From the NCBI RefSeq assembly GCF_055900595.2, contig NZ_CM148325.1: DNA of 64,000 nt. The stretch is one strand, 5' to 3'. Every line of letters begins with the position of its first letter. Position 1 is the stretch's first letter. Shown in pieces: positions 49,722-53,008 of the stretch. Below the pieces are notes generated by a model. The model was not told the origin of the DNA and did no database searches. It worked only from the letters and a program-made list of their open reading frames with translations. Both the position numbers and the translations under genes were made by a program.

Positions 49722-50555
49722 ATGTATCAGGCTCAGTTTTCTCATAACCCACTGTATTGCGTAGATATTATCAAGACTTATAAACCTGATTTCACGCCAC
49801 GAGTGGCCTTTATTTTAGGTTCCGGGCTGGGCGCGCTGGCCGATCAGATTGAGAACGCGGTCGCAATTTCCTACGAAAAGCTGCCTGGGTTCCCGGTAAG
49901 TACCGTACACGGTCATGCGGGTGAGCTGGTGCTGGGTTATCTCCAGGGGGTGCCAGTGGCGTGCATGAAAGGTCGCGGACATTTCTACGAAGGTCGTGGG
50001 ATGACCATCATGACGGATGCAATCCGTACCTTTAAGTTGCTGGGCTGCGAGTTGCTGTTCTGCACCAATGCGGCTGGCTCACTGCATCCTGAAGTGGGGG
50101 CCGGCAGTCTGGTCGCATTGAAAGATCACATCAACACCATGCCGGGAACGCCGATGGTGGGTCTTAATGATGAACGTTTTGGTGAGCGCTTCTTCTCGCT
50201 GGCGAATGCCTACGATGCGGAATACCGCGCACTGTTACAAAAAGTGGCGAAAGAAGAGGGGTTCCCTCTGACGGAGGGCGTGTTCGTCTCGTATCCGGGG
50301 CCGAATTTCGAGACTGCGGCGGAAATTCGCATGATGCAAATTATTGGTGGGGATGTTGTTGGTATGTCTGTGGTGCCTGAGGTTATTTCAGCTCGCCATT
50401 GCGAACTTAAAGTCGTTGCGGTCTCTGCGATTACCAACATGGCGGAAGGTCTGAGTGACGTGAAGCTTTCTCATGCCCAAACGCTGGCAGCAGCGGAACT
50501 CTCAAAGCAAAACTTTATTAATCTTATTTGCGGCTTTCTGCGCAAAATTGCCTGA
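49722..50555 (+). CDS. xapA: xanthosine phosphorylase (purine nucleoside phosphorylase II)
   Basis: 277-aa PNP-family ORF; xapAB-xapR synteny. Confidence 0.92.
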   Translation: MYQAQFSHNPLYCVDIIKTYKPDFTPRVAFILGSGLGALADQIENAVAISYEKLPGFPVSTVHGHAGELVLGYLQGVPVACMKGRGHFYEGRGMTIMTDAIRTFKLLGCELLFCTNAAGSLHPEVGAGSLVALKDHINTMPGTPMVGLNDERFGERFFSLANAYDAEYRALLQKVAKEEGFPLTEGVFVSYPGPNFETAAEIRMMQIIGGDVVGMSVVPEVISARHCELKVVAVSAITNMAEGLSDVKLSHAQTLAAAELSKQNFINLICGFLRKIA

Positions 50556-50615: not shown

Positions 50616-51872
50616 ATGAGCATCGCTTTGCGCTTAAAGGTAATGTCCTTTTTGCAATATTTTATCTGGGGGAGCTGGCTGGTTACCCTCGGTTCTTACA
50701 TGATTAATACCCTTCATTTCACCGGCGCTAATGTTGGCATGGTTTACAGTTCCAAAGGGATCGCCGCGATTATTATGCCTGGTATAATGGGGATCATCGC
50801 AGACAAATGGCTGCGTGCAGAACGTGCATACATGCTGTGTCACCTGGTGTGTGCGGGCGTACTTTTTTATGCGGCATCCGTAACTGATCCGGATATGATG
50901 TTTTGGGTGATGTTAGTCAATGCGATGGCGTTTATGCCGACTATTGCGTTATCGAACAGCGTCTCTTATTCCTGTCTTGCCCAGGCAGGGCTTGACCCGG
51001 TGACCGCTTTCCCGCCCATTCGCGTTTTTGGTACGGTGGGGTTCATTGTCGCCATGTGGGCAGTAAGCCTGCTGCATCTGGAATTGAGTAGTCTGCAACT
51101 GTATATCGCGTCCGGTGCGTCATTGCTGCTGTCGGCTTATGCGCTGACTTTGCCGAAGATTCCGGTTGCGGAGAAAAAAGCGACTACATCGCTTGCCAGC
51201 AAGCTGGGTCTGGATGCCTTCGTGCTGTTTAAAAATCCACGCATGGCTATCTTTTTCCTCTTCGCCATGATGCTGGGTGCGGTGCTGCAAATTACCAACG
51301 TTTTTGGCAACCCGTTCCTGCATGATTTCGCCCGTAATCCTGAGTTTGCTGATAGCTTCGTGGTGAAATATCCGTCCATTTTACTGTCAGTTTCACAGAT
51401 GGCTGAAGTCGGTTTCATTCTGACGATACCGTTCTTTTTGAAGCGTTTCGGTATTAAAACCGTCATGCTGATGAGTATGGTGGCGTGGACGCTGCGCTTT
51501 GGCTTCTTTGCCTATGGCGATCCATCACCAACCGGGTTTATTTTGCTGTTGCTGTCGATGATTGTTTACGGTTGTGCATTCGATTTCTTCAATATTTCTG
51601 GTTCGGTCTTTGTCGAACAGGAAGTTGATTCCAGCATTCGTGCCAGCGCCCAGGGCCTTTTTATGACGATGGTAAATGGCGTCGGCGCATGGGTTGGCTC
51701 GATTCTGAGCGGTATGGCAGTGGATTACTTCTCGGTGGATGGCGTAAAAGATTGGCATACCATTTGGCTGATGTTTGCAGGGTATGCTCTTTTCCTCGCA
51801 GTGATATTTTTCTTTGGGTTTAAATATAACCATGACCCTGAAAAGATAACGCATCGTTCAGTTACACATTAA
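50616..51872 (+). CDS. xapB: xanthosine:H+ symporter (MFS)
   Basis: 418-aa MFS ORF. Confidence 0.92.
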   Translation: MSIALRLKVMSFLQYFIWGSWLVTLGSYMINTLHFTGANVGMVYSSKGIAAIIMPGIMGIIADKWLRAERAYMLCHLVCAGVLFYAASVTDPDMMFWVMLVNAMAFMPTIALSNSVSYSCLAQAGLDPVTAFPPIRVFGTVGFIVAMWAVSLLHLELSSLQLYIASGASLLLSAYALTLPKIPVAEKKATTSLASKLGLDAFVLFKNPRMAIFFLFAMMLGAVLQITNVFGNPFLHDFARNPEFADSFVVKYPSILLSVSQMAEVGFILTIPFFLKRFGIKTVMLMSMVAWTLRFGFFAYGDPSPTGFILLLLSMIVYGCAFDFFNISGSVFVEQEVDSSIRASAQGLFMTMVNGVGAWVGSILSGMAVDYFSVDGVKDWHTIWLMFAGYALFLAVIFFFGFKYNHDPEKITHRSVTH

Positions 51873-51924
51873 AAGGATTCGCAGCTCTGTTCCTTGGGGC
51901 TGCTTTTATGATAAAGGTTAATTA

Positions 51925-52083
51925 GTGAAAGATATTTTATTTTCTTCTGGCGTTGGTTTTGGCATTGGTGCTTTGTTTACAATCGTGCGATTACCTATTC
52001 CTGTTCCAAATGTATTGCCGGGTATATTATCCATCGTGTTTATGTATGTCGGATATCTGGTGGTGAAATACTTTATGCCATGA
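51925..52083 (+). CDS. xapX: putative small hydrophobic protein (XapX-like), GTG start
   Basis: 52-codon ORF from GTG at 51925 to TGA at 52081-52083, absent from track (under 60 aa, non-ATG start); aagg SD-like about 9 nt upstream; product VKDILFSSGVGFGIGALFTIVRLPIPVPNVLPGILSIVFMYVGYLVVKYFMP is one predicted TM helix; location matches recalled XapX family downstream of xapB. Confidence 0.45.
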   Translation: MKDILFSSGVGFGIGALFTIVRLPIPVPNVLPGILSIVFMYVGYLVVKYFMP

Positions 52084-52123
52084 TAATTTAATATGATGTA
52101 TTTTTTATATGGAGCACTTAATT

Positions 52124-53008
52124 ATGGAACGCGTATATAGAACAGATCTTAAGTTGCTCCGTTATTTTCTTGCCGTAGCGGAAGAGTTGCATTTTGGTCG
52201 CGCAGCAGCGCGTTTAAATATGTCTCAGCCTCCGCTCAGTATTCATATTAAAGAGCTGGAAAATCAACTCGGCACGCAGCTTTTTATTCGCCATTCGCGC
52301 AGCGTCGTACTGACACACGCGGGCAAAATCTTGATGGAAGAATCGCGTCGATTGCTGGTGAATGCAAATAATATATTGGCTCGGGTTGAACAAATAGGTC
52401 GGGGAGAAGCAGGGCGGATTGAACTCGGGGTTGTGGGAACGGCAATGTGGGGACGGATGCGCCCGGTTATGCGGCGATTCCTTAGAGAAAATCCTAACGT
52501 TGAAGTTCTGTTTCGCGAAAAGATGCCCGCGATGCAAATGGCCTTGCTGGAACGCCGCGAACTTGATGCCGGGATCTGGCGAATGGCGACAGAACCACCG
52601 ACTGGTTTTACCAGCTTACGGTTGCATGAATCGGCGTTTCTGGTGGCGATGCCTGAAGAGCATCATCTCTCATCATTTTCCACCGTCCCGCTGGAAGCGC
52701 TACGTGACGAGTATTTCGTTACAATGCCGCCCGTGTACACTGACTGGGATTTTTTGCAGCGAGTTTGCCAGCAGGTGGGATTTTCACCGGTTGTTATTCG
52801 CGAAGTTAATGAACCGCAAACGGTACTCGCCATGGTCAGTATGGGTATTGGTATCACATTGATAGCGGACAGCTACGCGCAGATGAACTGGCCCGGTGTC
52901 ATATTCCGTCCGCTCAAAGAACGCATCCCGGCAGACTTATATATTGTTTATGAAACGCAGCAGGTGACGCCCGCGCTGGTTAAACTGCTGGCGGCGTTGG
53001 CGCAGTAG
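52124..53008 (+). CDS. xapR: LysR-family activator of xapAB
   Basis: Internal ATG of ORF 52109-53008; product MERVYRTDLKLLRYFLAVAEELHFGRAAARL... (294 aa). Confidence 0.9.
   Translation: MERVYRTDLKLLRYFLAVAEELHFGRAAARLNMSQPPLSIHIKELENQLGTQLFIRHSRSVVLTHAGKILMEESRRLLVNANNILARVEQIGRGEAGRIELGVVGTAMWGRMRPVMRRFLRENPNVEVLFREKMPAMQMALLERRELDAGIWRMATEPPTGFTSLRLHESAFLVAMPEEHHLSSFSTVPLEALRDEYFVTMPPVYTDWDFLQRVCQQVGFSPVVIREVNEPQTVLAMVSMGIGITLIADSYAQMNWPGVIFRPLKERIPADLYIVYETQQVTPALVKLLAALAQ

Follow-up and report, generated by a model that had tools for sequence, protein, structure and literature searches.

A 52-codon gene between xapB and xapR

The spacer between xapB and xapR in the stretch of DNA analyzed here (64,000 nucleotides [nt] of contig NZ_CM148325.1, NCBI RefSeq assembly GCF_055900595.2, referred to below as the window) almost certainly contains a genuine protein-coding gene of the XapX family, xapX. 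Considering the evidence as a whole, we regard it as very probable that xapX is a real gene of the xap module; its product may be a dispensable membrane accessory of xanthosine uptake or catabolism.

The gene occupies positions 51925 to 52083 of the plus strand and encodes a small membrane protein of the XapX/DUF1427 family. Its open reading frame (ORF) extends from a GTG start codon at 51925 to a TGA stop codon at 52081 to 52083, yielding a product of 52 amino acids, MKDILFSSGVGFGIGALFTIVRLPIPVPNVLPGILSIVFMYVGYLVVKYFMP. The spacer that harbors it measures 251 bp, counted from the xapB stop codon (51872) to the ATG of xapR (52124). GTG 51925 is the only plausible start, since the frame is closed by a TAA two codons upstream and offers no alternative start codon before M40. 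It is preceded at a distance of 7 nt by a Shine-Dalgarno-like AAAGG on the plus strand (51913 to 51917), as read from the sequence. Six other genomes likewise carry a purine-rich motif at the corresponding site, such as AAGGAGG in Chimaeribacter and GAAGGA in Citrobacter. A preliminary description of the window, made from the sequence alone, had proposed a GTG-initiated 52-codon ORF with a Shine-Dalgarno-like motif in this spacer; its coordinates and signals were confirmed. It had also noted that the ORF was unlisted, which agrees with the curated record of E. coli MG1655 (NC_000913.3), where no gene is present at this position.

Codon-level selection on xapX

When the 251-bp spacer was shuffled with its dinucleotide composition preserved, 18% of the shuffled sequences contained a complete ORF of 52 or more codons. 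The length of the xapX ORF alone is therefore not significant, and the case for a gene rests on conservation. Between the window and K-12, 7 of the 159 positions of xapX differ. All seven differences are synonymous, none is nonsynonymous, and the two proteins are identical. The comparison of codons was extended to six genera, represented by two Escherichia alleles and by one genome each of Salmonella, Enterobacter, Citrobacter, Entomohabitans, and Chimaeribacter (seven genomes in all). Across genera, the proportion of synonymous differences (pS) ranged from 0.49 to 0.83 and that of nonsynonymous differences (pN) from 0.08 to 0.21, with a ratio of nonsynonymous to synonymous substitution rates (dN/dS) of about 0.05 to 0.30. 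These values are within the range of xapA, xapB, and xapR, yet they exceed all three in some genome pairs. The variable columns of the alignment were distributed as 19, 12, and 45 over the first, second, and third codon positions, respectively. In the remaining five frames of the region, including that of a 38-codon antisense ORF, stop codons arise in other genera.

The start codon of xapX alternates between GTG and ATG at one and the same position across orthologues. Every intact orthologue encodes exactly 52 amino acids, including those of Pseudocitrobacter, Phytobacter, Pragia, and Limnobaculum, and this length is constant over the Enterobacteriaceae, Yersiniaceae, and Budviciaceae. A decayed copy was found in Citrobacter sp. 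Cu233, in which the GTG start is changed to GTA and the gene carries a 2-bp deletion and many substitutions; the copy of its close relative Citrobacter sp. On2M is intact. To judge by its sequence, the Cu233 allele is a loss of xapX caught in progress, with the ORF apparently decaying where selection has lapsed.

The synonymous-only differences between the window and K-12, the third-position bias, and a family profile score far over its cutoff (see below) together place xapX above the level of chance. These comparisons indicate that the gene is under strong purifying selection where it is retained. Failure of the reading frame to be conserved in related genomes had been set beforehand as the observation that would speak against a gene; as judged by synteny, dN/dS, and the 52-amino-acid length, the frame is conserved.

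Family membership and annotation

When compared with the NCBIfam model TIGR03510 "XapX," the protein scored 64.2 bits (cutoff, 27.8; E = 5.8e-18), with residues 4 to 50 aligning to profile positions 2 to 48 of 49. The same model was matched by all 45 relatives in our alignment. PF07235 (DUF1427) was matched at an E value of ≤0.1 by 34 of these 45 relatives, and a Pfam scan of E. coli XapX itself returned no family, including PF07235, at an E value of ≤1. Family membership of the E. coli protein thus rests on NCBIfam.

Exactly this ORF is listed by the RefSeq annotation pipeline PGAP as WP_000651752.1, "DUF1427 family protein," in strain E200086, which matches the window, and in K-12 MC4100. 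The identical protein sequence is present on at least 1,000 contigs, where it is named a DUF1427 or XapX domain protein. The gene is located between annotated xapB and xapR genes, and it takes the same position in six further genera. This is the position from which the family takes its name. The assignment to a XapX-like family in the preliminary description is thereby borne out: xapB-xapR is the type locus of the catalogued XapX/TIGR03510 family, which overlaps DUF1427. Given its presence in public family libraries and in automatic RefSeq annotation, xapX is already known and is not a discovery.

A literature search for XapX, DUF1427, and TIGR03510 returned one mention in a gene table and a domain survey from 2005, and no functional study was found in the literature that could be searched. 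The 2005 survey (PMC554113) described DUF1427 as restricted to plant-associated proteobacteria. Unlike in that account, the members collected here are found in Enterobacterales, archaea, and viruses. A possible link between the XapX family and the oxalurate genes of Klebsiella (HpxX) was considered and dropped for want of support; TIGR03510 was the sole match.

Predicted structure of XapX

The monomer was modeled with AlphaFold2 using the 45-sequence alignment. The model has a predicted local distance difference test (pLDDT) score of 92 and contains two helices, residues 2 to 20 and 31 to 50. The preliminary description had read the product as a peptide with a single transmembrane segment, which has to be revised to two predicted helices. 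XapX is accordingly predicted to be a helical hairpin of two hydrophobic helices of about 20 residues each.

On the plus strand, predicted helix 1 (codons 2 to 20) corresponds to 51928 to 51984 and contains glycines G9, G11, G13, and G15, of which G11 and G15 are nearly invariant in the family. It is followed by a proline-rich connecting loop, V-R-L-P-I-P-V-P-N-V (codons 21 to 30; 51985 to 52014), which is nonhelical in the model and corresponds to the family motif LP[IV]PAP. Predicted helix 2 (codons 31 to 50; 52015 to 52074) carries the conserved residues G33, I37, and G43. The conserved loop sequence joining the helices is RLPIPxPNVL. Among the 45 family members, G11, G15, L23, P24, P26, P28, I37, and G43 show little or no variation, and in a subset of 33 members G33 is almost always kept. 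Small-residue patterns of the GxxxG or glycine-zipper type are present on both helices.

The protein has a grand average of hydropathicity (GRAVY) of 1.31, and the loop itself is fairly hydrophobic. Charged residues are few (K2, D3, R22, and K48), and longer relatives possess basic C-terminal tails. These two features suggest a topology in which both termini are cytoplasmic (N-in/C-in). Among solved structures, no match to XapX was found by either fold or sequence search.

Presence and loss of xapX across xap loci

The gene order xapA-xapB-xapX-xapR is shared by Escherichia, Salmonella, Enterobacter, Citrobacter, Entomohabitans, and Chimaeribacter. In Chimaeribacter, the cassette is found at another chromosomal site, between metG and the rha genes. 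In every xapX-bearing locus examined, xapX is located directly downstream of xapB. In Pragia and Limnobaculum, the 3' end of xapX and the start of a 268-amino-acid ORF that precedes xapR share 16 nt (L048:4365-5314 and L041:4365-5314). By its motifs, judged by eye, this ORF appears to be deoxyribose-phosphate-aldolase-like, which would make the order xapA-xapB-xapX-deoC-xapR. The overlap places xapX inside a catabolic operon in these two genera.

To survey the distribution of the gene, one genome per GTDB species was scanned with XapB as the anchor, which returned 43 xapA-xapB-xapR loci. Ten of them contain xapX, one as a pseudogene. The other 33, among them those of E. albertii, most Citrobacter, Klebsiella, most Enterobacter, Buttiauxella, and Cedecea, do without the gene and have a spacer of 37 to 101 bp. 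xapX was likewise absent from all 37 XapB/NupG-like loci that are more distant or were sampled incompletely, including those of Listeria, Gilliamella, Proteus, Serratia, and Paenibacillus. Loci with and without xapX are interleaved on a rough neighbor-joining tree of XapB, which argues for an ancestral xapX and several independent losses.

Within the species, the xapB-xapX-xapR region was found in 4,086 and xapA in 4,073 of 5,426 complete E. coli genomes; the occurrence of xapX follows that of the xap locus. In 17 genomes (e.g., CE10), a divergent allele lacks xapX and resembles those of E. albertii and Citrobacter. In strain RM14721, IS1 lies beside a truncated yfeN, and xapA, xapB, and xapX are deleted. 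The xanthosine module has xapX as an optional fourth gene, which is inherited with the cassette and is dispensable for the core function of XapA, XapB, and XapR. As a separate observation, about a quarter of the genomes (roughly 1,340 of 5,426) gave no megablast match to either xapA or the xapB-xapX-xapR junction.

Expression signals around xapX

Upstream of the AAAGG motif, a consensus scan identified a terminator-like element on the plus strand at 51881 to 51909. It consists of a stem-loop (51881 to 51903; nine pairs, five of them G-C, and a loop of 5 nt) followed by TTTTAT. In the window, the hairpin has a minimum free energy of -13.1 kcal/mol, compared with -15.2 kcal/mol in K-12; the z-scores are modest. 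Escherichia, Salmonella, Pseudocitrobacter, Enterobacter, and Citrobacter all retain the base of the stem (GCAGC/GCUGC) and the U-run, and one compensatory pair and several wobble changes were noted across these genera. Comparable hairpins follow xapB in loci that lack xapX. On the basis of its sequence, the element may act as a partial intrinsic terminator or attenuator downstream of xapB.

A scan for the sigma-70 consensus found no promoter-like site on the plus strand near xapX or xapR, including the 40-nt spacer between them. A genomic study by systematic evolution of ligands by exponential enrichment (SELEX) placed an RpoN-holoenzyme peak in the xapB-xapR spacer (K-12 old coordinate, 2,520,564; PMC8743547). 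A sigma-54 promoter for xapX was considered and rejected: with up to three mismatches allowed, no TGGCAC-N5-TTGCW-like site occurs on the plus strand between 51870 and 52124, and the number of matches across the window is at chance level. As for xapR, PMC7205307, citing Seeger et al. 1995, describes its expression as constitutive and not autoregulated.

The spacer between xapX and xapR (52084 to 52123, plus strand) is AT rich and holds the xapR ribosome-binding site, GGAG (52111 to 52114), as read from the sequence. Only its last 22 nt or so resemble the region upstream of xapR in loci without xapX.

The wider XapX/DUF1427 family

An exhaustive HMMER search yielded 77 XapX representatives at 50% clustering, and a profile search returned at least 1,514 homologue clusters at 90%. 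Tandem paralogs, one of 70 to 85 and the other of 63 to 64 amino acids, were found in Afipia, Pandoraea, a compost bacterium, and an actinobacterial-type contig (L015:5001-5457, L018:5001-5460, L020:5001-5455, and L014:1384-1839). An FmdA/AmdA amidase adjoins the pair in Afipia, Pandoraea, and the compost bacterium, and an AraC regulator fused to an FmdA-like domain is located beside it in the first two. On the actinobacterial-type contig, the pair adjoins a GntR regulator, and no amidase was called on that short contig. The tandem pairing suggests hetero-oligomers. One further relative overlaps the stop codon of a flavin mononucleotide (FMN) reductase gene.

On a plasmid of Halomarina sp. BND7 (L023:4012-5159), a DUF1427/XapX gene overlaps the stop codon of a nucleoside hydrolase gene by 4 nt. 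Directly before it are the genes of an energy-coupling factor (ECF) transporter (components S, T, and A) and of a second nucleoside hydrolase, a context that links the XapX domain to nucleoside catabolism a second time and independently. Taken together with the enterobacterial xap loci and the deoC-like neighbor in the Budviciaceae, the haloarchaeal hydrolases make nucleoside catabolism a recurrent, not a universal, context of XapX.

A phage subfamily with the motif FKLP[IV]PAPPVFAG.MGIVGLWIGY is present on at least 571 IMG/VR contigs. The best 80 phage loci represent one syntenic lineage, in which the gene lies downstream of PolIII-alpha and MazG and is flanked by RecA plus small ORFs on one side and by a PD-(D/E)XK nuclease on the other (L106:6001-6162 and L109 to L188, IMG/VR). 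In the haloarchaeal virus HCTV-1, gp136 (L024:2992-3153) is annotated as 'XapX', and a copy is also present in Geobacillus virus E3.

Proposed role of XapX and alternative explanations

We see an even chance that XapX acts in the membrane as an accessory of the xap module. The protein would insert into the inner membrane, its glycine motifs would mediate self-association, and its modulatory effect on the uptake or catabolism of xanthosine would be exerted at the membrane, in the simplest case on or beside XapB. XapB would be the simplest direct partner, an assignment that we put forward tentatively and consider rather doubtful. Translation would start from the gene's own Shine-Dalgarno motif and GTG codon, on transcripts that read through the hairpin, on a transcript shared by xapX and xapR, or on both. 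Read-through past the hairpin would render xapX inducible by xanthosine; the alternative is a promoter shared with xapR.

Several observations weigh against this proposal. Three quarters of the xapABR loci do without xapX, so the protein cannot be required for XapB function, and the co-occurrence expected of an obligate XapB subunit was absent in that only 10 of the 43 loci carry the gene. Distant relatives adjoin FmdA/AmdA amidases, FMN reductase, nucleoside hydrolases, or phage replication modules, not transporters of the major facilitator superfamily (MFS). The loop motif is conserved whatever the neighbor, which argues for an intrinsic rather than an XapB-specific function. An artificial XapX-linker-XapX fusion modeled in AlphaFold reached a pLDDT of 55 and gave no confident packing. 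The hairpin and its U-run separate xapB from xapX, and no consensus promoter was found for a xapX transcript. Ribosome-profiling papers and their supplements, as far as they could be searched, contain no mention of xapX or xap entries, and the curated record of MG1655 lists no gene between xapB and xapR.

The main rival holds that XapX is an autonomous small pore or channel for a small polar solute, a homo-oligomer or, where two paralogs are present, a hetero-oligomer that works independently of XapB; we consider this unlikely. The solute could be, for example, a nucleobase, a nucleoside, a short amide, or one of their products. This explanation accounts better than the accessory model does for the paralog pairs and for a loop that is conserved whatever the partner. 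The core motif is kept from bacteria to archaea and viruses irrespective of the neighboring gene, both helices carry GxxxG or glycine-zipper patterns, and tandem paralogs stand beside FmdA/AmdA amidases. In Halomarina, translational coupling to the gene of a nucleoside hydrolase, with an ECF transporter alongside, points in the same direction, as does the absence of xapX from most xapABR loci, which makes it no obligate subunit of XapB. Against a channel, no solved channel matches XapX in structure or sequence, the fused-dimer model lacked confidence, and no substrate is common to xanthosine phosphorolysis, amidases, FMN reductase, and phage replication modules.

Three further explanations were considered. 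It is very unlikely that xapX is a leader or upstream ORF whose translation, rather than its peptide, tunes xapR by coupling or by protection of the transcript. The xapX stop codon lies 40 nt before the xapR start and the ORF just 3' of the terminator-like hairpin, a consensus promoter of its own for xapR was not detected in the 40-nt spacer, and xapR is described as constitutive and not autoregulated in PMC7205307. The peptide expected of a leader ORF would be unconstrained, whereas that of xapX shows strong purifying selection; moreover, the protein family occurs in unrelated contexts, a deoC-like gene intervenes between xapX and xapR in the Budviciaceae, and 33 of the 43 loci express xapR without such an ORF. 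A coupling effect on xapR could exist beside a function of the XapX protein. A toxic hydrophobic peptide resembling type I toxins or holins is highly improbable, even though the size and hydrophobicity of XapX are typical of such peptides, relatives are common in phages, and weak matches to the LydA holin model (4) and to SpoVAB (8) occurred among the 45 relatives. E. coli XapX itself has no Pfam match, no Rfam RNA was found in or around xapX, its antisense frame is not conserved, and PADLOC and PHROG returned no matches. In addition, the phage copies belong to replication or recombination modules and not to lysis cassettes, and cellular copies are translationally coupled to catabolic enzymes. 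That xapX is a chance noncoding ORF in a regulatory spacer has a negligible probability. The frequency of ORFs of this length in shuffled spacers (18%), the omission from the curated MG1655 annotation, and the lack of expression entries in the searchable ribosome-profiling literature would be compatible with it. It is effectively refuted by codon-level conservation: the synonymous nature of all seven differences from K-12, a cross-genus dN/dS far below 1, the 19/12/45 variation by codon position, and a constant 52 amino acids despite switching between ATG and GTG starts. The TIGR03510 score far over the cutoff, the at least 1,514 homologue clusters, and the visible decay in Citrobacter Cu233, where selection was lost, also contradict it.

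Beyond the accessory role preferred here for E. coli XapX, a broader and decidedly speculative view, which we consider improbable, is that the XapX/DUF1427 hairpin represents an ancient and widespread class of minimal channels or facilitators. Its members would form glycine-zipper oligomers with an LPxPAP loop and move small nitrogenous solutes. If this were true, the class would extend over bacteria, haloarchaea, tailed phages, and archaeal viruses, with nucleobases, nucleosides, and short amides as solutes. E. coli XapX would then shape the flux of xanthosine and xanthine and, hence, the behavior of the xapAB induction switch.

Models of the xapAB/xapR switch and experiments on it assume three genes, and a fourth, membrane-located component could affect uptake or induction. 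The XapX family is large, with its at least 1,514 clusters, archaeal members, and at least 571 viral contigs, and it is functionally uncharacterized; E. coli offers an easy genetic entry point. xapX is an ordinary member of a known family that will not surprise a specialist and is worth a line in the K-12 annotation. Strong purifying selection over three enterobacterial families makes a case for its addition to the curated MG1655 record. This analysis adds the codon-level evidence of selection, the revision from one helix to two, the accessory distribution with repeated losses, the upstream hairpin, and the wide range of the family, which extends to phages and archaea.

Comparison with known systems

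XapX does not differ from the TIGR03510 family in any respect considered: it is about 50 amino acids long, hydrophobic, and encoded between xapB and xapR. With Pfam DUF1427 it shares the name assigned by PGAP, and most relatives match that model, but E. coli XapX itself does not. Small inner membrane proteins are known to modulate larger transporters or enzymes, as in the pairs AcrZ-AcrB, KdpF-KdpABC, MgtS-MgtA, and CydX-CydAB. XapX is similar to AcrZ, KdpF, MgtS, and CydX in that it is short and hydrophobic, is encoded next to and 3' of a transporter gene, and is dispensable in many lineages. Most proteins of this type have a single helix and are poorly conserved outside close relatives. XapX differs from AcrZ-type proteins in its predicted two-helix hairpin and in a motif that is conserved over domains of life and in unrelated neighborhoods, and its pairing with XapB is only putative. 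Two hydrophobic helices, GxxxG-type motifs, and many phage homologues are features shared with two-helix holins and pinholins and with glycine-zipper pore formers. Unlike for holins, the copies lie outside lysis cassettes, PHROG matches are lacking, and cellular copies are found in catabolic operons.

Neighboring genes and minor observations

Gene labels were taken from the record of E. coli E200086, which matches the window without a difference (100% identity) over 801 bp at the xapB-xapR junction. All genes of the module are on the plus strand. Its first gene, xapA (49722 to 50555; 277-amino-acid ORF), encodes xanthosine phosphorylase and is 100% identical to the E200086 gene. It is followed by xapB (50616 to 51872; 418-amino-acid ORF), which is annotated as xapB in RefSeq and encodes a xanthosine/H+ symporter (NHS-type MFS). 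The LysR-type activator of xapAB is encoded by xapR (52124 to 53008; 294 amino acids), for which RefSeq uses the same start.

Between 48709 and 50555 of the window, identity to K-12 is at its lowest, with 90.7% in yfeN, 83.5% in the yfeN-xapA spacer, and 92.1% in xapA (dS, 0.35). The corresponding values are 95.6% for xapX, 96.4% for xapR, and 96.9% for gltX. The idea that the whole xap locus is unusually divergent from K-12 was rejected, since xapX and xapR are close to gltX and only yfeN and xapA are elevated. The surroundings of the xapA promoter resemble a local hotspot for recombination or for divergence between alleles.

Downstream of xapR, between 53060 and 53700, near-identical short ORFs (MISSAGRAPPLQGGGRRFDPV...) are repeated on both strands. 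They are not genes but artifacts of translating the tandem valU-valX-valY-lysV tRNA genes and an RtT-like repeat, which are annotated in RefSeq.

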